Source of the DNA: Silvanigrellaceae bacterium
GTDB taxonomy: Bacteria > Bdellovibrionota_B > Oligoflexia > Silvanigrellales > CANGWC01
Length of the DNA: 57,317 nt
Reading direction: 5' to 3'
NCBI GenBank assembly: GCA_947457515.1
Contig: CANGWC010000002.1
Span: 1-57,317 of the forward strand
Shown here: positions 26,955 to 52,570 of the stretch, in pieces
How the letters are laid out: every line of letters starts with the position of its first letter
Position numbering within the stretch: position 1 is the first letter of the stretch
Program-made: the position numbers and the translations under genes
Notes under the pieces: generated by a model
Seen by the model: only the letters and a program-made list of their open reading frames with translations
What the model was told of the DNA's origin: nothing
Database searches by the model: none

Positions 26955-28373
26955 ATGAACGACGAAACTCATTTTCAAGAGCCTGAAGAGCAAAACTTCA
27001 GAAAACGATTTAAACGCAACAATAGAAACGATGATAATTACTCTGGTAGAAAACAGAATGATTATCATAAACCTTTTCATCACCATGATGAAAAAGAGCC
27101 TGATTTTGATGCCACCATTCCAGTGATGAATCTTAAAGAGATTAAAGAGAAGCACATAAGTGAGCTTGTACAGTTAGCTAGGGATATGGGTATAGAAGGC
27201 GCATCTCATTTAAGAAAGCAAGAACTTGTTTTTGCTTTACTTGAAGGTCAAGCCCGTCGTCATGGCATGGTTTATTCTGAAGGTGTTCTAGAAACTTTAC
27301 CTGATGGTTTTGGTTTCTTAAGAGCCCCTGATTATAATTATCTTCCAGGTCCCGATGATATTTATGTTTCTCCTTCTCAAATCCGTAGGTTTAACTTACG
27401 TACCGGAGATACAATTAATGGCCAAATCCGTCCTCCTAAAGAAGGTGAACGTTATTTCGCTCTTTTAAAAGTAGAATCTGTTAACTTTGAACCACCTGAT
27501 CTTACAGGTGAAAAAATACTTTTTGATAACCTTACTACGATTCATCCGATTGAACGTTTCCAAATGGAATACGACCCTCAGATCTTAAGTACTCGGGTTA
27601 TTGATCTCCTTTCTCCTATTGGTAAGGGACAACGTGCTCTTATTGTGGCACCTCCTCGTACAGGTAAAACTGTACTTCTTCAAAACATTGCCAATGCCAT
27701 TGCAAAAAATCATAAAGAAGCAACGTTGATTGTTCTTCTCATTGATGAAAGACCTGAAGAAGTTACTGAAATGGAACGATCCGTAAAAGGTGAAGTTGTC
27801 AGCTCGACTTTTGATGAGCCTGCTCAAAGACATGTTCAAGTCGCTGAAATGGTTATTGAAAAAGCTAAACGTCTTGTAGAACATAGAAAAGATGTCATTA
27901 TTCTTCTTGATTCTATTACCAGATTAGCCAGAGCCTATAACTCTGTTGTTCCTCCCAGCGGAAAGATCCTTACCGGAGGTGTTGATGCTAATGCCTTACA
28001 CAAACCTAAAAGGTTCTTTGGAGCTGCCAGAAAAGTGGAAGAAGGTGGTAGCTTAACCATCATAGCAACCGCACTGATAGATACTGGTAGTCGTATGGAT
28101 GAAGTGATCTTTGAAGAATTTAAAGGTACCGGTAATATGGAACTTGTTCTTGATAGAAAACTTGCTGAAAGACGTATCTTCCCAGCTATTGATGTGAATA
28201 AATCAGGAACTCGTAGAGAAGATCTCTTAATACCTAAAGACATCCTAAACCGTCTTTGGATCCTCAGAAAAGTCATTCATCCTATGAACCCTGTAGAATC
28301 TATGGAATTCCTATCTCAACGTTTAGAACGCACAAAATCTAACGATGAATTCCTAGGTAGCATGAACGGATAA
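26955..28373 (+). CDS. rho: transcription termination factor Rho, with possible 57-aa basic/His-rich N-terminal extension
   Basis: Walker [20 protein letters not shown]-like RNA-binding domain GFGFLR. The canonical Rho N-terminus ([14 protein letters not shown]) begins at the alternative start 27126. Confidence 0.95.
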
Positions 28374-28385
28374 TATTCTATTCCT

Positions 28386-28853
28386 TTGAAAAAATATTTC
28401 TTATATTTCTTTTTCCTCTTATTAAATCAGTGCCAAACATTAGACACAAAAACAGGATGTTTCCAAAGTAAACATCCTGGATTTACTGGGACCATAGTCA
28501 TACCCAATAAAAGTCTTATCTTTGATTTAGAAGCTGTTTGGAGTGATAACTATAACCAACTGAGTATTAAGCTTTTAGATCCCGTAGGTAGCCCTTCTGT
28601 ACCTTTTTCTTTTTCTTCATACTTAAATCTTACTCCAAAAGATCTTCGCCATTTCTTTTGTTCTTATCCTGGGGAAGAAGAGTGGGAATACACCGTTCCA
28701 TTAAGTTTTTCATCTTTGATCTCTCCTTTGACTCTTTTAAGTCCAACTCGATATCAAATTGTAAGACTCTACGATAAAACCCAACTTAAAGAGCTTAAGG
28801 TCTTTTCTGGATCTCAACTTATTTTCTATTTAAATATTCTTGACTTTACTTAA
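28386..28853 (+). CDS. hypothetical lipoprotein-like protein
   Basis: TTG start 12 nt after rho. N-terminus MKKYFLYFFFLLLNQC is signal plus Cys, but not a canonical lipobox. No recognised domain. Confidence 0.45.
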   Translation: MKKYFLYFFFLLLNQCQTLDTKTGCFQSKHPGFTGTIVIPNKSLIFDLEAVWSDNYNQLSIKLLDPVGSPSVPFSFSSYLNLTPKDLRHFFCSYPGEEEWEYTVPLSFSSLISPLTLLSPTRYQIVRLYDKTQLKELKVFSGSQLIFYLNILDFT

Positions 28854-29115
28854 GATCCCAAAGATTTCTTGAGATATCTTAAGAAACTCTTTTTCAGGTA
28901 ACGACATCAGCCTACTTTTAATACGCAGACATGTTTCTAATTTATTTTCCCAAGGCTCACTGACTTTAAGTCGATATTCCATATCTTCTAAGGTGTGATC
29001 AAGATCTTCCATGATTTATACTTTACTTAAATCTAAATTTTTCTCCTGATATTTTCAGGAGCATATTGCATCCATCGGCACTTAGATTGAAGATTAAAAG
29101 AAGAGGTATTCAACT

Positions 29116-30168
29116 ATGGGAAAACTTTTCCGTTTATTTCTCAGCATCACTTTGCTCATTCTCTTATTTTTAGCGATCTATTGGTGGAGCCCAAGACCCA
29201 GTGAAGATCCTATCCCGTCAAAAAATCATTATTTTGATATTTACCCCGGAGAATCATTTGCAACAATTACCTATCATTTAGGTGAAAGTCGTTGGTTCTT
29301 TCTACCAAAGTTATTCCAGATCTATGGACGATTATTTGGCTTAGATAAGCTCATTCAACCTGGAACTTATGAACTTCCTTCTACATTAAGTCCCCATGAT
29401 ATTTTACAAAAAATCACCTCTGGAGATTCAGTAAATGTCACCATAACATTTCCGGAAGGTTGGAATGTCACTCAAATTCTAGAGAAACTTCATATTGAAT
29501 ATCCTCACTTCTCCGAAAAGATCTGGTTAAATAGCATAGAACAATCTCAGATTTTTCTTCAAACAGAAATCTCTAAAATCCAAAAAATCTATAACCTACC
29601 CATGAATCTTCCTCCTCCAGAAGTCATTACTCTAGAAGGCTATCTCTATCCCGGACAATATCAATTTAGGCCTACAGCAGATCCTAAATCTCTTCTCACC
29701 ACTATGATCAAAAGATTCTTTGCTGAACTCCAAAAACCAACTCTCCTTGAAGCTCAAAAACTTGGATTCAATCTTCACTCTCTTGTTACGTTAGCTTCTC
29801 TCATCGAAAAAGAAACAGGTGCTCCAGAAGAACGTGCTCACATATCACAAGTCTTTCATACTCGACTCAAAAAAAACATGCGCCTACAAACAGATCCAAC
29901 AGTGATTTATGGATTAGGCAAAAACTACGATGGTAAAATCCACAAAAAAGATCTTCAAACACCCACCCCTTACAATACCTACGTGATTCCCGCTCTACCC
30001 CCAGGACCCATAGCGAGTCCTGGTAAAGATTCTATCAATGCTGCTGCGTTTCCCTCAGCCACAGACGATCTCTTCTTTGTAAGTATGGGTCAAGGCAAAC
30101 ACTACTTCTCTAAGGATCTTAACGATCATAATAAAGCTGTTAGAAAGTATATTCTGAATAAAAATTAG
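29116..30168 (+). CDS. mltG: endolytic murein transglycosylase MltG (YceG family)
   Basis: N-terminal TM. LASLIEKETGAPEERAHISQVFHTRL...LQTDPTVIYG...YNTY...LPPGPIASPG. Confidence 0.88.
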   Translation: MGKLFRLFLSITLLILLFLAIYWWSPRPSEDPIPSKNHYFDIYPGESFATITYHLGESRWFFLPKLFQIYGRLFGLDKLIQPGTYELPSTLSPHDILQKITSGDSVNVTITFPEGWNVTQILEKLHIEYPHFSEKIWLNSIEQSQIFLQTEISKIQKIYNLPMNLPPPEVITLEGYLYPGQYQFRPTADPKSLLTTMIKRFFAELQKPTLLEAQKLGFNLHSLVTLASLIEKETGAPEERAHISQVFHTRLKKNMRLQTDPTVIYGLGKNYDGKIHKKDLQTPTPYNTYVIPALPPGPIASPGKDSINAAAFPSATDDLFFVSMGQGKHYFSKDLNDHNKAVRKYILNKN

Positions 30169-30177
30169 GTTTAAAAA

Positions 30178-31482
30178 TTATTGATAACAATTATTTTTAT
30201 CAAATTCGATACATCTCAAATTTTTATCAGGTATATAACAAGAAGATGTTGCATCGGGTGGGGGAGCTGAGCCTACATATCGGGCCAATTCTCTTGTCTG
30301 ACCAAAACCCCCTCCCATTGTTTGAATCTCTACTGTTTTACCAGTTAAAATCATAGACTCATTTTTACCTTTGTAATCATATACTTTATCTCTTTTCACA
30401 ACATCAAAGCAATACTGATATTCATCAGGTATATTTGGAACAATAGCCATTCTTGCTGCAGGATTTCCATATTGATCTTTCGCTTGAGCAGCGCCTGCTG
30501 GAGCAATTTTAAGATTATATTGACCATATGTAATCATATCTTTCGCATCATTAAAACACTTATTTTTATCATCTTCGGCACATTGAATGTTTTTATTCTC
30601 AACAAAACAAGCAGTAGATTCATCTATGAATATTGGATTACCTTTATCATCAACACCTTTTCCGTCAGGACGAGCTTTTCTAGCTCTTTCATCTCTTTGC
30701 CCTCCTCCAGGGTTTCTTTCTTCACGAGTAGACGCATAAACGAAATCTCCTGCCTTAAAAGTTGCTACTTTTGAACCATCTCTATAGCAAAAAGCATAGT
30801 TAGAATAAGCAGGATCTCTAGGTTTTACGACAAATTTTGCTAAAGCTGTTCCGTTAGCTTGTGCTTGAGCAACAACACCAGCTGTTTTAGTTGCAGTCAT
30901 ATTACATTGAATCATTAATCTATCAACGTAACAAGTTCTCGTTTTTGTATTAGAAGAATCTGTAAAAAAAGCTGCTTTTACATAGGGAACATTAAAAGTA
31001 CCCTCTTTAAAAATACTCAAAGTTGTGCCAATAGGAATATCTTCTCCACTAGCACTGTTTCCCTCTTTTCTTTCATGACATAAAGCTAGATCATCTCCTG
31101 ATTGTGCAACTGTAACCTTACCTTTAGTGCATGTTGGAGTATCTTTATCAGTTAACCACTGAAATGTATCACCACCGCTAGATGCCGAAGTAGAAGCTGC
31201 ACTAGGACTAGGTGACGACGGCGAAGCTGCACTAGAACTAGGTGACGACGGCGAAGCTGGACTGGGTGATAACGAAGAGCTAGATGGAGCTGCTGAGTTT
31301 GAAGAAGTAGTTGTAGCAGCGGCAACAGCAGCAGCGGATAATGCCGATGCACCAAGTGTTGCTGCCGTTGGATCTGCAACTGAAGCAGGTGCCGAATCTA
31401 ACGCATCTGCAGCAACAGGTGCTACAGCTGGCCTACAACCCATGACTAAAAAAACGATAAACCACGCAAGATTTGATTTCAT
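30178..31482 (-). CDS. lipoprotein with A/S/P-rich linker and three Cys-motif modules
   Basis: Lipobox FLVMGC. About 80-aa Ala/Ser/Pro low-complexity tract. Thrice-repeated motif: TCYVDRLMIQC / ACFVENKNIQC..C / SCYIPDKNLRC..C. Confidence 0.6.
   Translation of the reverse strand: MKSNLAWFIVFLVMGCRPAVAPVAADALDSAPASVADPTAATLGASALSAAAVAAATTTSSNSAAPSSSSLSPSPASPSSPSSSAASPSSPSPSAASTSASSGGDTFQWLTDKDTPTCTKGKVTVAQSGDDLALCHERKEGNSASGEDIPIGTTLSIFKEGTFNVPYVKAAFFTDSSNTKTRTCYVDRLMIQCNMTATKTAGVVAQAQANGTALAKFVVKPRDPAYSNYAFCYRDGSKVATFKAGDFVYASTREERNPGGGQRDERARKARPDGKGVDDKGNPIFIDESTACFVENKNIQCAEDDKNKCFNDAKDMITYGQYNLKIAPAGAAQAKDQYGNPAARMAIVPNIPDEYQYCFDVVKRDKVYDYKGKNESMILTGKTVEIQTMGGGFGQTRELARYVGSAPPPDATSSCYIPDKNLRCIEFDKNNCYQ
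31193..31280. repeat. 30-bp tandem repeat, about 2.9 copies, inside the A/S/P linker coding region
   Basis: gaagctgcactaggactaggtgacgacggc / gaagctgcactagaactaggtgacgacggc / gaagctggactgggtgataacgaagagc. In frame (10 aa per unit). Locally GC-rich. Confidence 0.8.
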
Positions 31483-45750: not shown

Positions 45751-46065
45751 TTAAGCTGCTTCTGGTTTAGGAACAACAGAAATGACCATAGAATATCCTA
45801 GTGCTTTTAAAACCCGGGAGATCAGATCAAACGTAGGAGTACGTCTGGCATCTCCGGACTCTAGACGTGCTATGAGTGGTTGACTGACTCCAGCTAACTT
45901 AGCTAAAGCGGCTTGCGACAAACCCGATTTAGAACGTAAATCAGAAATGAGATGAGCTACCTGTAGATAGAACCTTCTTTCGTCATAAATAAGTTGAGTT
46001 TCCTTATCTTCCAGTTGTTGCTCTAATAGATTCTCTAAAGTAAATCCTCGTGGTTTTTTGTTCAT
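45751..46065 (-). CDS. higA: XRE-family HTH antitoxin (HigA-like)
   Basis: SGLSQAALAKLAGVSQPLIARLESG helix-turn-helix. 4-nt overlap with the upstream toxin gene. Confidence 0.75.
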   Translation of the reverse strand: MNKKPRGFTLENLLEQQLEDKETQLIYDERRFYLQVAHLISDLRSKSGLSQAALAKLAGVSQPLIARLESGDARRTPTFDLISRVLKALGYSMVISVVPKPEAA

Positions 46066-46394
46066 AAGAGTACCTCCTTTATACGTTTACGTGCTATTTC
46101 TAGCTCTTTAATAGGTGCCTTTTGACCTTGTTTACGGTACGCATGTAAAATATACACTTCATTTCTCTCTATGCTAACATAAAAAAACCTATAACTACCG
46201 CCTTGAGTACGTATCTTAATCTCCCATAACTTGCCTTCAATTTGGCGAAATTGGCAACCTTTTGCAACAAACCCATGGCTTTGAATATCACTTAATACGG
46301 CAAGAATTGTTGCTCGATCTTGTGCGCTAAGATCTTCTAAAAAAGAGGAAATATAACTTCGACCAGATCTTGCTTGATAGAAGGATATTCGCAT
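46062..46394 (-). CDS. higB: RelE/ParE-superfamily toxin, Gp49/HigB-like
   Basis: 110 aa. ...LWEIKIRTQGGSYRFFYVSIERNEVYILHAYRKQGQKAP..E is typical of phage Gp49-like HigB toxins. Toxin-first gene order. Confidence 0.72.
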   Translation of the reverse strand: MRISFYQARSGRSYISSFLEDLSAQDRATILAVLSDIQSHGFVAKGCQFRQIEGKLWEIKIRTQGGSYRFFYVSIERNEVYILHAYRKQGQKAPIKELEIARKRIKEVLL

Positions 46395-46603: not shown

Positions 46604-47545
46604 TTACTCTCCTTTCCTCCCTGAAACTAAGTAAACAAGGTTTCCACCTGCAAAATCTAACTCTCCTGCCTCAGTAGCATCCCAATGTTTCTGATATGAC
46701 TCCTTGAAAAACCCTTGGTAGAATTCAAACTCTTCTTCCTTACCCCCACCAGCTATAAAGTAACGCTTTGTGGTCTCATCTTCCCATGCTCCATGAACTC
46801 TATCTTTCGTTCTCATTTCTTCCCACTCTTTAAGAATCAATTGCTCTTGTTCTGTCTCATAAGGAGGAATCCAGGGCCATGTTTTATCTGAGATGTATAC
46901 AGCAATATTTTTTAGTCCAGCTTTACCAAAGTAGCCTGGAACTAAGTCACCGCAAGCATCAAATCCTTCCCCTAGAACCTGTTTTCCTTTTCCACATTTC
47001 AAATAGAAACTCAAAGATCTGATCAGATCATCCATAGGCTCCTGAGCCGTTAAGCTATCAAAAATCAAGGATTGGCATAGGATATTAGGCTCAACCACAG
47101 CGATAAGTCCTCCAGGTTTTAAGATCCTTTTCATTTCTTCGATGGCTTTTAAGGGGTCGCCTAAATGCATCAGTACTGTTTGGCAAGTCACCATGTCTAC
47201 ACTATTGCTTTCAAATGGGAGTTGGTAAGTATCTCCCTTCACATACGAAAATCGAGGATGCAGACCTTTTTGATGAGCTTCTTCAGTGGCTTTTTCTACC
47301 CACTCAGCTTCTCGATCTACTCCTATTAAACTGCAAGTCTTATTCAAATAGGGTTCGAGAGTGCGTCCCCAATGACCTATTCCACAGCCTACATCCACAA
47401 TGCTATTTACCTTAGAAAGGTCCCATCGCTTTGCCATAAGCGCTAAGAAGTCTTGATTCCACCAATGATTTCTACTTTCTACAAAGTAATCTGCAGAATG
47501 TGGTTTGTGTTTATTATTTTCATTTTGTTTATGTTCCTTAGACAT
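46604..47545 (-). CDS. class I SAM-dependent methyltransferase
   Basis: Motif I VDVGCGIGHWG, post-I GVDRE, VDMVTCQTVLMHL, LKPGGLIAVVEPN. GGAG SD upstream. Confidence 0.8.
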   Translation of the reverse strand: MSKEHKQNENNKHKPHSADYFVESRNHWWNQDFLALMAKRWDLSKVNSIVDVGCGIGHWGRTLEPYLNKTCSLIGVDREAEWVEKATEEAHQKGLHPRFSYVKGDTYQLPFESNSVDMVTCQTVLMHLGDPLKAIEEMKRILKPGGLIAVVEPNILCQSLIFDSLTAQEPMDDLIRSLSFYLKCGKGKQVLGEGFDACGDLVPGYFGKAGLKNIAVYISDKTWPWIPPYETEQEQLILKEWEEMRTKDRVHGAWEDETTKRYFIAGGGKEEEFEFYQGFFKESYQKHWDATEAGELDFAGGNLVYLVSGRKGE

Positions 47546-47860
47546 AACTTCTCCATATGTTTTTAATTTGCAGATTCTTAAGATCTGAAATTTTTAATTT
47601 TTTTGATTGAGATAATAAAATTCAGAGGCTTAAAAAAAGATAAGCATGAAATTATTAATTTTTTGAAGCTATAGGGAGAAACGCTATGGGGGTGTTAAAG
47701 AAGAAAATGACATATTTTATGACTCTTCTGAGTGTTTCTTAATTAAAAAAGAAATTCCTCGTTCAGGAAATGCAATCTACCTAAATTATAAATCACTGGC
47801 AAGAAATAATTTAAAATCTAATCTAAATCAAATAAAAACAATTATTTAAAAACAATAATC

Positions 47861-47903
47861 TTACAAAACACACTCAGATAATTTAAGTGAGTGTGTTTTG
47901 TAA
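47861..47903 (-). terminator. perfect 16-bp stem hairpin downstream of the receiver gene (possible operon terminator)
   Basis: ttacaaaacacactca (47861..47876), 11-nt loop, tgagtgtgttttgtaa (47888..47903). No clean U-tract on either strand, so intrinsic-terminator status is uncertain. Confidence 0.45.
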
Positions 47904-47952
47904 AATTTATCTAAATTTGAGAATATGTGCTAATTCAATAGCAATCGTTTAC

Positions 47953-48306
47953 TTAATTGGCTAATAGGGCTGCGATCTCACCTTGTATAAACGATATCAA
48001 TTCTAAACCCTTAGGAATCACTCCCGTCAACCCTTGCCAAGATTCTTCAGAATCTGTAATCACTTCCGGAAGACATGTAGAAATAAATGTAGGAACACAG
48101 AATTTTTCAACGATTCTTTGAAAGATCTGACGATCTAAACGCTCATTAGTTAAGTAGTAATCTAATATAACGAGATCAAGACATTGTTCATACTGAAGAA
48201 GATCTTCAAAAGAATCAAAAACCTTTAGGCAGAAGTTCTTCTCTAATTCTAATTTCCACAAATGAATGGCTAGGATACTGTCTTCCACTAAGGCTATTGT
48301 CTTCAT
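47953..48306 (-). CDS. single-domain response regulator (CheY-like receiver)
   Basis: 117 aa. ALVEDS (acidic pocket), DLVILDYYL (phospho-acceptor Asp), FIST (Thr/Ser), VIPKG (Lys) in the expected order. Confidence 0.65.
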   Translation of the reverse strand: MKTIALVEDSILAIHLWKLELEKNFCLKVFDSFEDLLQYEQCLDLVILDYYLTNERLDRQIFQRIVEKFCVPTFISTCLPEVITDSEESWQGLTGVIPKGLELISFIQGEIAALLAN

Positions 48307-48359
48307 CCCAAGGTGTTAAATCTTTTATAGGATTGAGATCAAGCTCTCCGAAAGATTAT

Positions 48360-48842
48360 TTAAAGAAAAACCTGAGCAATATAATAAAACAAGAAAAATC
48401 CCACTCCATAAAACCAGGGTTTAAGCCAAATAAACTTTTGCGATGTTACCCAAAAATAACCTAACGAACCTAATAAAATAGGATGCAAAACAAAAAGAGC
48501 TGAGTGTAACCACTGTTCCCCTAAAGATATGGGAAGCATATAATGAATAGACTCTTCTTTTAAAACAACTAAACACGATAGGACAAACCAAAAGATGTAT
48601 TTCCACTCTCTTCTTTTGAGGTAATCTTTGTAAAGCGCATAATAAATACATATCAAAAACACTAAAGTATCTAATACGTGTCCCCATTTTTCGAGGAGCG
48701 GAATAAATCGGTTGCGATGATAGCAAAATTCATCTGTTAAAAATAAAATCGCTTGTATAATAAAAGGAATCGCCCAGTAAAACTGTCTAATCTTATTATT
48801 GGAGCTGGGATTTAATGTAATTTTGAATTCGTTGTTGATCAT
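48360..48842 (-). CDS. small polytopic membrane protein with conserved-looking His/Glu residues
   Basis: 160 aa, about 4-5 hydrophobic segments. DEFCYHRNR, EESIHY, HSALFVLHP. No family recognised. Overlaps the upstream gene by 47 nt. Confidence 0.5.
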   Translation of the reverse strand: MINNEFKITLNPSSNNKIRQFYWAIPFIIQAILFLTDEFCYHRNRFIPLLEKWGHVLDTLVFLICIYYALYKDYLKRREWKYIFWFVLSCLVVLKEESIHYMLPISLGEQWLHSALFVLHPILLGSLGYFWVTSQKFIWLKPWFYGVGFFLFYYIAQVFL

Positions 48843-49557
48843 CAGCTCCTGGTTGATTCTGAATGTCTGTTACAATTTTCTTCATAGATTCTTCAGGTAA
48901 ACTCACTGTTCCCCCACCAGGGATCAATCCAGATATATGAGTCACTTGTTCTATTAAAGCGACAGCATCTGATAAAGTCATCTGACTCAATTGATTCAAA
49001 TCGATTGTAGAACTTGTCGGATCAACTGTAAATTTCTTAAGCTTCATAAATAAACTGATCGTATTCACTTTTGCTGAATAACCACTGTATTTACCTTCTA
49101 CGGGGGTAAGGTAATCAATGACTTTATTGATCTGATCGAGATTAGCCTGGGTAGAATCAGGAATAATCAGAACAAAATCTGATAACGATAACCCAGTACC
49201 ACTGGAAGTTGCATTAAATCCTGAAGTTTTAAGGTCTTCTTCTGAATAAAGCTTTGTGCTGCTTTTCTGTGAAAGAAGCTTGAGAGCCAAATCAATATCA
49301 CTTAAACCCATTTGTCTTAAAACAACAGTTCCATAAGAAAGTCTTGCTTCATCATGACTTGGATTACTGAGAATCTCTTTTTCAATAGCAGCTTTAGCGG
49401 CGTTATAATTATGACAGGTTAAAGCAAATCTAAATTCATCCTCATAACTTAACTTCACTAACGGGTTCCATACGTTTCCTGTAGGACAGGGTAGAGTTGA
49501 TTTACCACAGCTTATAATAAGACTTAAAATAAGAATTTTTTTTATCAAAGTAACCAT
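48796..49557 (-). CDS. hypothetical lipoprotein
   Basis: MVTLIKKILILSLIISCG lipobox-like signal. No recognised domain. Confidence 0.55.
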   Translation of the reverse strand: MVTLIKKILILSLIISCGKSTLPCPTGNVWNPLVKLSYEDEFRFALTCHNYNAAKAAIEKEILSNPSHDEARLSYGTVVLRQMGLSDIDLALKLLSQKSSTKLYSEEDLKTSGFNATSSGTGLSLSDFVLIIPDSTQANLDQINKVIDYLTPVEGKYSGYSAKVNTISLFMKLKKFTVDPTSSTIDLNQLSQMTLSDAVALIEQVTHISGLIPGGGTVSLPEESMKKIVTDIQNQPGADDQQRIQNYIKSQLQ

Positions 49558-50600
49558 CCTATTTTAGCTAAAGCATGAACTCTTTGTGAGGGATTTTCTC
49601 CGGGAAGAACTCCTAACTCTTTTGTGTTGTAGGCTAATTCTAAATTGATAATCTTTGCATTTAAAAAGACACCATAAGTGGGGTATCCCTCACTCAGACC
49701 TAAATTAAACCCTACCCATCCTCGATAACTTCCTTCCAATCCTAAATGTATTTTTTGATAGAAAGAGTTTTTATAAGCATTCAAAAGATCAGTTAAATAC
49801 AATTCTCCATGAATCCTAAAAGCATTCTCAATTGTTTCTGTATAACCCAAAGCATAATTTAAAGATCTGATGTCCTTTAAAACAGACTTGCCTGTGGATA
49901 TCAGTCCAGGAATCATAAAACCTACAGATACAGACTGATAATGGTAATTAACACTAGGATCTAAAGTAATGACCTGTCCCTCTGTGACGTTTTGTTGACT
50001 CAGGTTTTTGAGAGCATTAACATCTAACGTAGATAATTCTGAAGTAGAAAGATTAATCTGAGTTAAAGAAACTTTCATGAATTTTAATCTTGCACCTACA
50101 GACCAATCATCAAAAGATTTTCCATAAGAAATTTCTGGTCCTGTAGAGACTTTCAATGAAACATCAGCTTCTGCGCCACCCAAAACAGGATCTGTGCCTA
50201 CGCGAGCATTCGCTTCTAAACTCTGAAAAAGTCCTATACGAGTGTGTGCGTAAGTAAATGTTTCTGAACTTTGAAGCCCTACATAAAAAGGAACATCTTG
50301 ATACTTTTTAATAAGATTAATAATCTCATCTGTTCCTATAGATGATTTATTCATGGCATCTGTTGCTAAATTACCTAAATTTCGACTTGCAGATATTTCT
50401 GGACTGAGAAGTTCTAATTCTTGAAAGCCATCACCTAAATTTCCTAAGTAAGCAGGATTCTCTATTGTCGGTGCCGCAAAAATCCCTGCCCCACCTTGGC
50501 CTTCTCTTCGGGGAGATGCCTCTAAAAAACTAAATATGTTGACACTTAAGGTAATAACTAAGGTTCTATGTATCGCAAACTTCAAATAAACACCCAGCAA
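49545..50600 (-). CDS. putative outer-membrane beta-barrel protein
   Basis: Signal-like N-terminus. Alternating hydrophobic/polar strands with frequent G/Y/S/T. Aromatic-containing C-terminus (AKIGWLL). TTG start uncertain. Family not identified. Confidence 0.4.
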   Translation of the reverse strand: MLGVYLKFAIHRTLVITLSVNIFSFLEASPRREGQGGAGIFAAPTIENPAYLGNLGDGFQELELLSPEISASRNLGNLATDAMNKSSIGTDEIINLIKKYQDVPFYVGLQSSETFTYAHTRIGLFQSLEANARVGTDPVLGGAEADVSLKVSTGPEISYGKSFDDWSVGARLKFMKVSLTQINLSTSELSTLDVNALKNLSQQNVTEGQVITLDPSVNYHYQSVSVGFMIPGLISTGKSVLKDIRSLNYALGYTETIENAFRIHGELYLTDLLNAYKNSFYQKIHLGLEGSYRGWVGFNLGLSEGYPTYGVFLNAKIINLELAYNTKELGVLPGENPSQRVHALAKIGWLL

Positions 50601-51561
50601 TGGTTAAACCGGGGCCAAAAGCTAAGCTCAGAACATATGGGTATCTTGGATTTTCTAAGATACTAGACCAGATATACGGAAGAGTAGCCGAGGACATATT
50701 CCCGTGCTCTTTTAGGATACCCCAACTTTCTTGAACCTGATCATCTGTAAGTGCCAAAGTCTTGTGCACTGTATCAATGATCTTAAGACCTCCGGGATGA
50801 ACGGCAAAATGACATTCTTCTTTTTTAATATCAAAATGCTTTAAAAAATCTTCTATAAAATTCTGAATATATTCAGGAATTTTAGAAGATAAGGTCATAG
50901 CCATATGATACCCTGTTCCATACCAACTCATGGCTTCTACCGTATCCGGAATCACTCTCCAAAGTATTTTGTTGACCTTTAGGCTTTTCCCTTTAGGTTT
51001 TTGAGATATTGCATCATAAGCAATGAACCCATCTGCAAATAATGTCTCAATCACAAGGTTTTCTAAAGAATGGGAAGCCGGATTAAAATGTAAGGTACAA
51101 AGTTCCGTATGAACAATAGTCCCAGATCCTTCAAAACCTTTTGCAATGCGTAATGCAGGGATACTGGCATAACAACCCATATGATAAGCATGGATCACTT
51201 CTGTATCAGGAGGTGCTAATCTTTGAAAAGGACTGGGAGACATATATCCTGTACAAGATACATGCACTAAAAAATCATTCTGGAATTGAAGATCTTTCCC
51301 ATATTTAAGAACCTGCTCTTCATAATAATCCATACGATCTTTCCAGATTCGAGGAGGAAAATGAATCTTCATGTTTTCCCAAGATTCATGGGAAAAATCT
51401 TCCACAAAAGAACCTCTTTTTTCTATGTATTTAGAAAATTTCTTTAAATACTTTAGAACATCTCCTCCATGCTTTTCATGGGCACGAGCTATCCATTGAA
51501 TGGAATCATCTTGTTGACTTTGAAAGGGACAGGGGACTTTTTGAAAGTTCTTAAGGTACAT
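50566..51561 (-). CDS. type III polyketide synthase (chalcone/stilbene synthase family)
   Basis: Cys-His-Asn triad contexts: HMGCYASIPALRIA (active-site Cys), FAVHPGGLKIID (His), HGNMSSATL (Asn). Also LFADGF and AFGPGLT. Confidence 0.75.
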   Translation of the reverse strand: MYLKNFQKVPCPFQSQQDDSIQWIARAHEKHGGDVLKYLKKFSKYIEKRGSFVEDFSHESWENMKIHFPPRIWKDRMDYYEEQVLKYGKDLQFQNDFLVHVSCTGYMSPSPFQRLAPPDTEVIHAYHMGCYASIPALRIAKGFEGSGTIVHTELCTLHFNPASHSLENLVIETLFADGFIAYDAISQKPKGKSLKVNKILWRVIPDTVEAMSWYGTGYHMAMTLSSKIPEYIQNFIEDFLKHFDIKKEECHFAVHPGGLKIIDTVHKTLALTDDQVQESWGILKEHGNMSSATLPYIWSSILENPRYPYVLSLAFGPGLTIAGCLFEVCDT

Positions 51562-52570
51562 GATTCATCAGATCATAAAGGAATTTAGGATCTAAATCTT
51601 TCATGCATCTATGATGTTGACGGGGACAAACCTGATGTCCATGTAAGGAACACGGCTGACAATCCAGTTTAATTCCTTGACTGGGAAGGTTTCCTATCAC
51701 CGTACCCGGAGGAGTGAATCCATGATCTGTGCCCGTAGGACCATAAATTCCTAATGTAGGTTTTTGGAAAGCCCAAGCTAAATGAACCAGAGCAGAATCA
51801 TTAGAAATGGCAAATAAAGATCTTTCTAAAATGATAAACAGATCTAAAAATGAAGTGAATCCAGGCATAAAATGAAAGATTCTGGAATGGTACTCCTCCG
51901 GTAAATGCTTTAAGAATTCTTGTCCAAGTTCTTCTTCCCCAGGACCTGTATTCATAAAACAATACAGATCTTTTTGTGAATCAAGATGTAATCTGACAAG
52001 CTCACTGAGCTGTGGCATGGGGTATCTTTTGGTTGGCCATTGGCTCCCTGGAGAGATCATGAAGTATTTTTTCTCCAATAAGTCTTTTAAAAAAGGCACT
52101 TCCGCCATTCTTTTTTGAATCGTATCTTGGCTGGGTGATTTCCAATACGGGAGTTTTGGGGAGATAGGGATCCATTCTTTGGGAACTAAAGAAAGAATGC
52201 GTTCTGCTTCAAATGTTTTTTGGGAAACCTGAATCGATTTTTGATACAAAAAAGAATACCTGCCTTTAAACCCAATAGAAGGCCTCTGACTTAAAAAGAC
52301 CATGATAGCTGAAGTTAAAGATCTATGTGGAACAAGGATATGATCGCATTCACGAAGACTTTTTGTGATTTTAGAGAAACATTGAATTTTGTTTTTTTTA
52401 GGAACTAAGACAGTTTTTTTAATTCGAATATCGTCATTGTATAGCCTTACGCCAGCAGAACTGGTAAACAAAGATATCTGATGCCCATTAATATATAGGG
52501 CTTCAATCGTTTGACTACATAAAATAAGGTCCCCCACATACGCTGTATGAAGTATGCCTATCTTTGCCAT
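51551..52570 (-). CDS. glycosyltransferase family 9 (heptosyltransferase-like) with C-terminal Cys cluster
   Basis: MAKIGILHTAYVGDLIL, SPGSQWPTKRYP, ISNDSALVHLAWAFQKPTLGIYGPT. C-terminal CQPCSLHGHQVCPRQHHRC. Confidence 0.78.
   Translation of the reverse strand: MAKIGILHTAYVGDLILCSQTIEALYINGHQISLFTSSAGVRLYNDDIRIKKTVLVPKKNKIQCFSKITKSLRECDHILVPHRSLTSAIMVFLSQRPSIGFKGRYSFLYQKSIQVSQKTFEAERILSLVPKEWIPISPKLPYWKSPSQDTIQKRMAEVPFLKDLLEKKYFMISPGSQWPTKRYPMPQLSELVRLHLDSQKDLYCFMNTGPGEEELGQEFLKHLPEEYHSRIFHFMPGFTSFLDLFIILERSLFAISNDSALVHLAWAFQKPTLGIYGPTGTDHGFTPPGTVIGNLPSQGIKLDCQPCSLHGHQVCPRQHHRCMKDLDPKFLYDLMNHVP

Follow-up and report, generated by a model that had tools for sequence, protein, structure and literature searches.

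Do the six overlapping genes gathered around a type III polyketide synthase (PKS) in a Silvanigrellaceae bacterium make up one dedicated lipid pathway, or is a smaller conserved unit set among genes that belong to other associations? The locus that raises this question lies on the minus strand of a 57,317-nucleotide stretch of contig CANGWC010000002.1 (assembly GCA_947457515.1), which is referred to here as the window. Comparison with related genomes shows that the locus is a mosaic, in which the conserved unit consists of the alkylresorcinol-type PKS and a small membrane protein of an undescribed family, denoted MEM. With slightly better than even confidence, the gene string is read as a composite envelope operon built around this two-gene phenolic-lipid unit. 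From its upstream end, the string contains the following genes:

51551-52570, minus strand: RfaF (heptosyltransferase II)-like GT9 glycosyltransferase, whose C-terminal tail, CxPC...C...C, starts at Cys304; 339 aa
50566-51561, minus strand: type III PKS, ArsB/ArsC-like, predicted alkylresorcinol synthase; 331 aa
49545-50600, minus strand: probable outer-membrane beta-barrel protein (OMP), TraF_2/PorP-SprF-like, first gene of an inserted pair; 351 aa, TTG start
48796-49557, minus strand: lipoprotein, helical and TPR-like in its N-terminal part, encoded by the downstream member of the inserted pair; 253 aa
48360-48842, minus strand: MEM, five-helix membrane protein of an undescribed family; 160 aa
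47953-48306, minus strand: receiver-like open reading frame, lineage-specific, with a faint resemblance to CheY receivers; 117 aa

Computed with the longest-reading-frame starts, the successive overlaps are 11, 35, 13 and 47 nt, and a 53-nt gap precedes the last gene; all six minus-strand frames, the overlaps and the gap are as described in the initial annotation, which had been made from the sequence alone. The comparison set comprised 40 relatives (G001-G040), several of them complete, closed genomes, of which 30 carry the PKS and 29 carry both the PKS and MEM. The source genome itself (G000) is a 1.17-Mb assembly, 74% complete, with a G+C content of ~36%. A sister assembly, GCA_041443025.1, encodes an OMP 93% identical to that of the window and repeats the order GT9-PKS-OMP-lipoprotein-MEM; the receiver-like frame is not called at the corresponding position. 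The sequencing runs that contain the window sequence are all DNA metagenomes, from freshwater, lakes and microbial mats, with no RNA run among them.

The synthase and its conserved membrane partner

The synthase had been annotated as a genuine type III PKS with intact Cys, His and Asn contexts, and both statements are borne out by the profile and structure searches. In Pfam, the Chal_sti_synt_C domain scores 57.7 bits (cut-off 27) versus 30.5 bits for ACP_syn_III_C, and the N-terminal chalcone-synthase domain reaches 20.6 bits, below its cut-off. The best NCBIfam model is that of the type III PKS DpgA, far above the FabH models. The closest PDB entries are those of Azotobacter vinelandii ArsC (3vs9, E 1.8e-43; 3vs8, E 1.1e-41), followed by Steely1 (4e-22), and all 97 of the PDB matches listed by name are type III PKSs. 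An assignment to FabH/KAS III was rejected, since the profiles and structures of type III PKSs gave far higher scores. Residues Cys130, His255 and Asn288 align with the catalytic triad of ArsC, within the motifs GCY, HPGG and GNMSS.

The alignment also bears on the probable product. Trp213 aligns with the tryptophan of the ArsC G284W mutant (3vs9), which corresponds to the position of Trp281 in ArsB, and the mutant structure outscores that of the wild type (3vs8). A tryptophan at the ArsB Trp281 position switches cyclization from pyrone to resorcinol (PMC6274091), and resorcinol formation by PkqA-type enzymes is predicted from the same residue (PMC9927152). On the basis of its affinity to ArsB/ArsC and of the resorcinol-type Trp213, the window PKS is predicted to be an alkylresorcinol synthase. 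Its clade yields 6220 matches at ~40% identity, with members in Chlamydiia, Parachlamydiales, Oligoflexia and Holophaga metagenome-assembled genomes (MAGs).

In every one of the 29 relatives that possess both genes, the PKS and MEM genes are directly adjacent. Moreover, on three contigs, one from a Parachlamydiales MAG and two from metagenomes, the gene after the PKS encodes a ~165-aa protein that matches no Pfam domain, and the next one a ~245-aa UbiG-like methyltransferase; alignment identifies the ~165-aa protein as a homolog of the window MEM. The small His/Glu-rich polytopic protein, which had initially been treated as an accessory, is instead the only partner that stays with this PKS clade from phylum to phylum. 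At least 2904 homologs of MEM were found, all of them unnamed and lacking Pfam domains. A member of the family is encoded by 392 stretches of the GTDB species collection, in the Chlamydiota, Acidobacteriota (Holophagales, Geothrix), Myxococcota, Bdellovibrionota and Verrucomicrobiota.

The invariant residues of the MEM family include D37, E38, H42, R45, E51, H55, D58, T59, K95, E97, H100, E109, H113 and H120. In the AlphaFold2 model of the window protein (pLDDT 80.5, pTM 0.71), which consists of five helices, the four invariant Glu/His pairs are found where helices 1 and 3 end and where helices 2 and 4 begin, and would therefore lie on one face of the membrane. The window MEM has no Pfam match, ICMT and PEMT included; a sequence search of the PDB with the family profile returned no relative even at E 10, and a Foldseek search of the PDB with the model returned no relative in fold.

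A further line of evidence comes from a cultured strain, Geothrix limicola Red804 (NZ_BSDE01000001.1, L070:6847-9269), in which a MEM domain and a UbiG-like methyltransferase share a single open frame that directly follows the PKS. The frame is apparently a natural gene fusion, and such a fusion would tie MEM and the methyltransferase together functionally. Other genes recur around the cassette as well: PKS-MEM has a malic-enzyme gene at a distance of no more than a few kb in a relative from the same order (L012:4724-7018), in a Parachlamydiales MAG (L025:12236-13065) and in a metagenome contig (L028:11370-13037), and AhpC/redoxin genes stand beside the cassette in L025, L026 and L028.

The UbiG-like methyltransferase that usually completes the cassette elsewhere was sought with the cassette methyltransferase of L026 as the query. 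It directly follows MEM in genus g2 and in G018 and G034, with 43-54% identity to the query, and genus g3 has only unlinked matches, at 32-38% identity. The best match in the source genome, MT313, is encoded close to the window's gene string and is 34% identical over 98 aa; a cassette methyltransferase proper is absent from the genome as assembled. Sequence comparison thus indicates that the UbiG-like O-methyltransferase has been lost in the lineage of the window. The initial annotation had remarked that the partners of the PKS differ from the usual methyltransferases, which is correct for the window lineage and does not extend to the ancestral cassette, whose UbiG-like methyltransferase is still found in sister genera.

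Genes gathered around the conserved pair

Between the PKS and MEM genes of the window lie the OMP and lipoprotein genes. The evidence for a barrel, putatively assigned in the initial annotation, comes from marginal family matches: PorP_SprF is matched by the OMP at E 0.0024, below the Pfam cut-off; TraF_2 is matched by a 364-aa paralog in the same genome (G000:C5:29354-30448; 26.2 bits, cut-off 25) and by 4 of 15 homologs. The AlphaFold2 model, derived from only three usable alignment sequences, has a pLDDT of 26.7, and a barrel is unreadable from it. The protein is a probable outer-membrane beta-barrel. Its neighbor was correctly recognized as a lipoprotein, to judge from a signal peptide and from cysteines that are lipobox candidates (MVTLIKKILILSLIISC(17)GKSTLPC(24); LIISC at Cys17, and Cys24), and Cys24 aligns with an invariant cysteine in six homologs.

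This pair is not found next to the PKS in any of the 40 relatives, and wherever the OMP homolog occurs in them the lipoprotein accompanies it. Its homologs, in which the lipoprotein directly follows the OMP, are adjacent to each other at other sites in most of them (for example G020:C22:32925-34669, G011:C260:11830-13589, G018:C111, G015:C21 and G025:C40). The source genome also has a second copy on C5, with the OMP at 29354-30448 and a 254-aa lipoprotein at 28126-28890, 5 kb from a second GT9 gene. Given these copies elsewhere, in the relatives and on C5, the window pair is a paralogous two-gene cassette that has been inserted between the PKS and MEM genes. The insertion is shared with the sister assembly of 93%-identical OMP, and is therefore fixed at approximately the level of the genus. 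In mechanistic terms, the pair would be one copy of a multi-copy cassette of the class that entered the PKS-MEM unit in this genus.

Several observations accompany the pair. The set on C5 (23125-30448) comprises the second GT9, the 364-aa OMP, a 159-aa protein and the 254-aa lipoprotein, and in genus g2 the OMP-lipoprotein pair is located 10-28 kb from an hldE-like gene. From such surroundings, the pair may be part of outer-membrane or lipopolysaccharide (LPS) biogenesis. An AGGAG Shine-Dalgarno sequence is present just 5' of the MEM start, and a sigma-70-like promoter match (10/12; TTTACA, 17 nt, TACAAT) is found on the minus strand at 49004-49032, within the lipoprotein gene and 5' of MEM. 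As judged from its sequence, this site could provide a separate MEM transcript after the insertion.

Upstream of the PKS, the GT9 protein matches Pfam PF01075 (Glyco_transf_9) with 86.4 bits (cut-off 22), and its best NCBIfam model is TIGR02195 (heptosyltransferase II), which aligns over the full length at 80 bits, below the equivalog cut-off of 134.6. The sole PDB match is E. coli RfaF (1psw), and the PDB search returned no autotransporter heptosyltransferase of the TibC type. The heptosyltransferase-like GT9 with a C-terminal Cys4-like cluster (C304-Q-P-C...C...C) is therefore present as initially annotated. The cluster itself is not a special feature of this enzyme: an identical CxPC...C...C tail is found in the genome's other GT9 (G000:C5:23125-24168) and in the orthologs of the relatives, and the tail is accordingly a trait of the family. 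For the same reason, the proposal that the tail marks a non-LPS enzyme was rejected. The upstream start of the window gene appears to be real, since the N-terminus MxKIGIxHTAxxGD is kept in the relatives; the start in the sister assembly is called later, giving 328 aa. The 5' end of the gene overlaps that of a divergent solute-binding-protein gene by 24 nt (52547-52570).

In 25 of the 30 PKS-bearing relatives, the GT9 gene immediately precedes that of the PKS. It is unlinked from the PKS in G002, G004 and G007, and G009 has no GT9 match at E 1e-10. Among genomes without the PKS, G023 and G029 carry the GT9, and G027 has neither the GT9 ortholog nor the PKS. Full-length matches at 30-34% identity also occur in four families that have no PKS, and are probably orthologs. 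Where the linkage exists it can be intimate: the order in G001 is GNAT-GT9-PKS-MEM-methyltransferase, with mutual overlaps of 4-62 nt by the longest-frame starts, and that in G017 is GNAT-GT9-PKS-MEM. On the same strand after the G001 genes (L015:11089-13347) follow a fatty-acid desaturase-like membrane protein, with HNCIHG, HIEHH and HAEHH histidine boxes, and an MFS transporter. Outside the order, no GT9 stands beside the cassette in the four inspected loci of other phyla, and a motif scan, which found ~60% of positive controls, detected a GT9 in none of 84 MEM-family loci of other lineages.

As to the donor sugar, a gene for a kinase resembling HldE domain I is present in 41 of 41 genomes; the copy in the source genome (C14:5912-6832) scores 270.7 bits, below the cut-off of 345. 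GmhA (TIGR00441) went undetected in the 74%-complete source genome and in 21 of the 40 relatives, including all 13 of genus g3 and several of g2. Either the isomerase has been replaced in these organisms or the kinase serves another sugar. An argument that there is no heptose pathway and hence that the GT9 is no heptosyltransferase is not sustained, given the HldE-like gene in all genomes. The GT9 would be an RfaF-like transferase of the LPS-core type that travels with the cassette within the order, probably co-transcribed with it and keeping an LPS role of its own. Such a role in the LPS core is the most probable one, at somewhat better than even odds, and glycosylation of the phenolic lipid by this enzyme is rather unlikely.

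At the downstream end, the 117-aa frame had been annotated as a CheY-like receiver, an assignment that could not be upheld. Positions resembling those of a receiver can be picked out by eye (Glu8/Asp9, Asp49, Ser76/Thr77 and Lys99), and NCBIfam response-regulator models match at E 0.02, far below cut-off. There is no Pfam match at E 0.1, Response_reg included, and no ortholog in the 40 relatives. At the corresponding position of the sister contig of GCA_041443025.1, an IS200-type Y1 transposase is called in its stead, which marks the downstream end of the operon as a site of recent rearrangement. To judge from these comparisons the frame is outside any conserved system, and would represent an addition at the level of the strain.

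The string is closed by a hairpin, beyond which lies a neighboring methyltransferase gene:

47845-47907, minus strand: intrinsic-terminator-like hairpin with U-rich tail that ends the gene string
46604-47545, minus strand: MT313, class I S-adenosylmethionine (SAM) methyltransferase, with Methyltransf_11/UbiE-type domain matches; 313 aa

The hairpin placed after the last gene in the initial annotation is real, with a perfect stem measured at 15 bp (47888-47902 with 47862-47876) in place of the 16 bp given there. It forms ~20 pairs in the fold, at -24.9 kcal/mol (z = -5.96; none of 200 shuffles equaled it), and is followed by a U-rich run on its 3' side. A simple terminator scan missed it because the loop exceeds 8 nt and the stem is AT-rich. 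MT313 lies beyond this hairpin and a 400-nt AT-rich spacer with promoter-like sites, and from this arrangement looks like a separate transcription unit. As a displaced cassette methyltransferase it was rejected, on the grounds that its identity to the cassette enzymes (26-31%) is confined to the Rossmann core and that its occurrence is sporadic and unlinked, with orthologs in 3 of the 40 relatives, all far from the PKS. It may nevertheless be a functional stand-in for the missing enzyme. Just 3' of MT313, at 45751-46394, are genes for a 110-aa toxin of the HigB/Gp49-like kind and a 104-aa XRE-type antitoxin, which overlap by 4 nt.

Competing readings of the locus and of MEM

The initial annotation saw in the six genes one dedicated polyketide-lipid system with its own export and signaling parts: the PKS would make a phenolic lipid, the GT9 would glycosylate it, the barrel and lipoprotein would export or insert it, and the receiver would regulate the process. 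Several features do fit this proposal, among them the tight overlaps and single shared terminator, the GT9-PKS linkage in most PKS-bearing relatives with translational coupling in G001, and the joint absence of GT9 ortholog and PKS from G027. The OMP family, being faintly of the FadL/TraF_2 type, would suit a hydrophobic cargo, and Azotobacter cysts reportedly contain galactosides of alkylresorcinols. There is precedent, too, in a planctomycete-like type III PKS operon that holds a lipoprotein and a lipid-binding protein (PMC10896814). Against this, however, the OMP-lipoprotein pair belongs to a multi-copy family that lies elsewhere in all relatives, the receiver-like frame is an orphan that is not even called in the sister contig, and full-length GT9 matches occur in families that have no PKS, while the GT9 is unlinked in three relatives that do and was found neither in the inspected loci of other phyla nor, within the sensitivity of the scan, in the MEM loci of other lineages. 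The known acceptors of GT9 enzymes, moreover, are LPS or proteins and not phenols. A single dedicated system is thus quite improbable, and the mosaic with PKS and MEM as its conserved unit is the reading retained here.

What, then, would this unit produce? Phenolic lipids made by type III PKSs are known constituents of membranes and can serve actinobacteria as alternative respiratory quinones; in the known cases they are tailored by flavoprotein hydroxylases and methyltransferases. In the window, the PKS would extend a long-chain fatty acyl starter with three units from malonyl-CoA and cyclize the chain, by aldol condensation, to a 5-alkylresorcinol, upon which MEM would then act in the cytoplasmic membrane. 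The characterized alkylresorcinol clusters (SrsABC, PkqABC, HidABC and the planctomycetal operon) contain, besides the PKS, both a hydroxylase or oxidoreductase and a methyltransferase (PMC10896814, PMC9927152). Since MEM fills the slot of the oxidoreductase and possesses a set of residues resembling a metal site, we favor, by analogy, the view that it is a membrane-embedded, metal-dependent ring hydroxylase, which would generate a hydroxyquinol or quinone lipid. The end product would be an alkylresorcinol-derived membrane lipid modified by MEM, possibly ring-hydroxylated, and here probably either unmethylated or methylated by another enzyme.

Two other roles for MEM were weighed. It could be a very divergent integral-membrane methyltransferase of the ICMT/PEMT type, which would make the core equivalent to the BpsA/BpsB or SrsA/SrsB pair. 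MEM directly follows a type III PKS, as does BpsB, which is of similar size and has ~5 helices, and 2 of 31 family members match PEMT weakly (best E 0.0029). Yet the remaining 29, the window protein among them, match neither ICMT nor PEMT; the family profile finds no PDB chain at E 10, and the 50 Foldseek matches listed include no structure of an ICMT. The invariant Glu/His pairs resemble a metal site and not a SAM site, and a soluble methyltransferase of the UbiG-like kind already belongs to the cassette and in Geothrix appears to be fused with MEM. This identity is decidedly improbable. Alternatively, MEM may have no catalytic function, and may serve as a membrane anchor for the soluble PKS, with or without the methyltransferase, or accept or flip the lipid product. 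Its strict linkage to the PKS and the apparent fusion in Geothrix would be expected of such a protein, as would its small size and lack of a recognizable enzyme fold. Thirteen invariant charged or histidine residues, however, cluster at its helix ends across at least five phyla, a pattern seldom expected of an anchor and characteristic of a catalytic or metal-binding site, and a non-catalytic role is consequently unlikely.

A number of points weigh against the reading of the locus as a composite operon around a hydroxylating two-gene unit. The hydroxylase role of MEM has two footings, the residue pattern and the gene position, and MEM occurs in Geothrix and Holophagales, which include anaerobes and into which an O2-dependent hydroxylase fits poorly. 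From the two weak PEMT matches, MEM may also be a divergent membrane methyltransferase. The GT9-PKS linkage spans two families at 32-39% GT9 identity, with overlapping frames, and the two genes largely co-occur in family f2; this goes beyond casual synteny and could reflect a shared pathway. The donor sugar of the GT9 is uncertain, as GmhA was undetected. Finally, with a genome that is only 74% complete, genes considered lost could sit in its unassembled parts.

A bolder version of events would have the cassette wired to outer-membrane biogenesis in this order. MEM would be a novel type of integral-membrane dimetal ring hydroxylase, the co-translated GT9 would add a heptose-type sugar to the hydroxylated alkylresorcinol instead of to LPS, giving a Gram-negative phenolic glycolipid, and in the genus of the window the TraF_2/FadL-like barrel and the lipoprotein would carry this glycolipid to the surface. 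We give this scenario an outside chance.

Relation to known phenolic-lipid systems

The exact six-gene architecture, which the initial annotation did not recognize from described systems, has no description in the literature searched, nor does that literature describe a system of GT9 with type III PKS or the MEM family. Its parts nonetheless have clear counterparts. The closest enzymes are ArsB and ArsC of Azotobacter vinelandii: ArsC is the nearest solved structure (E 1e-43), with its triad aligned, the tryptophan is of the ArsB type, and the same class of product, a long-chain phenolic membrane lipid, is predicted. The ars operon differs in that it contains the type I fatty-acid synthase ArsA/ArsD, which is not found in the window, and no member of the MEM family. 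The window PKS is also more compact, at 331 aa versus 410 aa for the ArsC chain.

The ancestral PKS-MEM-methyltransferase cassette follows the same three-slot logic as SrsABC of Streptomyces griseus, PkqABC of Mycobacterium smegmatis and Streptomyces, and HidABC of picocyanobacteria and Planctomycetota. In these systems, an alkylresorcinol undergoes ring hydroxylation or oxidation and methylation to yield methoxy-alkylbenzoquinones or hierridins (PMC10896814, PMC9927152). The middle slot, however, is occupied in the window by MEM and not by a flavoprotein or FAD oxidoreductase; the gene string contains no oxidoreductase and no adjacent methyltransferase of the SrsABC, PkqABC or HidABC kind. 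The methyltransferase of the relatives is UbiG-like and is absent here, and the cassette is accompanied by a GT9 and split by two envelope genes.

Bacillus subtilis offers another parallel in BpsA/BpsB, where a type III PKS is followed by a small polytopic membrane methyltransferase of the ICMT type, a two-gene unit like PKS-MEM; unlike BpsB, the window MEM has no ICMT or PEMT match and shows a different pattern of conserved residues. For the GT9, the comparison is with E. coli RfaF/WaaF (1psw), its only relative in the PDB, alongside the full-length alignment to the heptosyltransferase II model. The window enzyme falls below the equivalog cut-off, its Cys tail lies outside the local 1psw alignment, and its gene is joined to a PKS and not to LPS-core genes, in a genome in which GmhA is undetected.

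The locus therefore falls within the known type III PKS phenolic-lipid clusters, and what makes it noteworthy is the undescribed MEM family, the order-specific coupling to a GT9 and the mosaic build of the operon. The window shows that the cassette can lose its methyltransferase and that it can be split by unrelated envelope genes. Its stable coupling, within one order, to a GT9 of the LPS type offers a lead toward a possible phenolic glycolipid. More broadly, a large clade of PKSs in several phyla has a fixed small membrane partner with no described family, fold or function, and the conserved residues of this partner suggest a metal-dependent enzyme. If MEM is indeed a ring hydroxylase, it would represent a new class of enzyme, and lineages such as environmental chlamydiae and Bdellovibrionota-type predators would have a minimal pathway for making quinone-like lipids.

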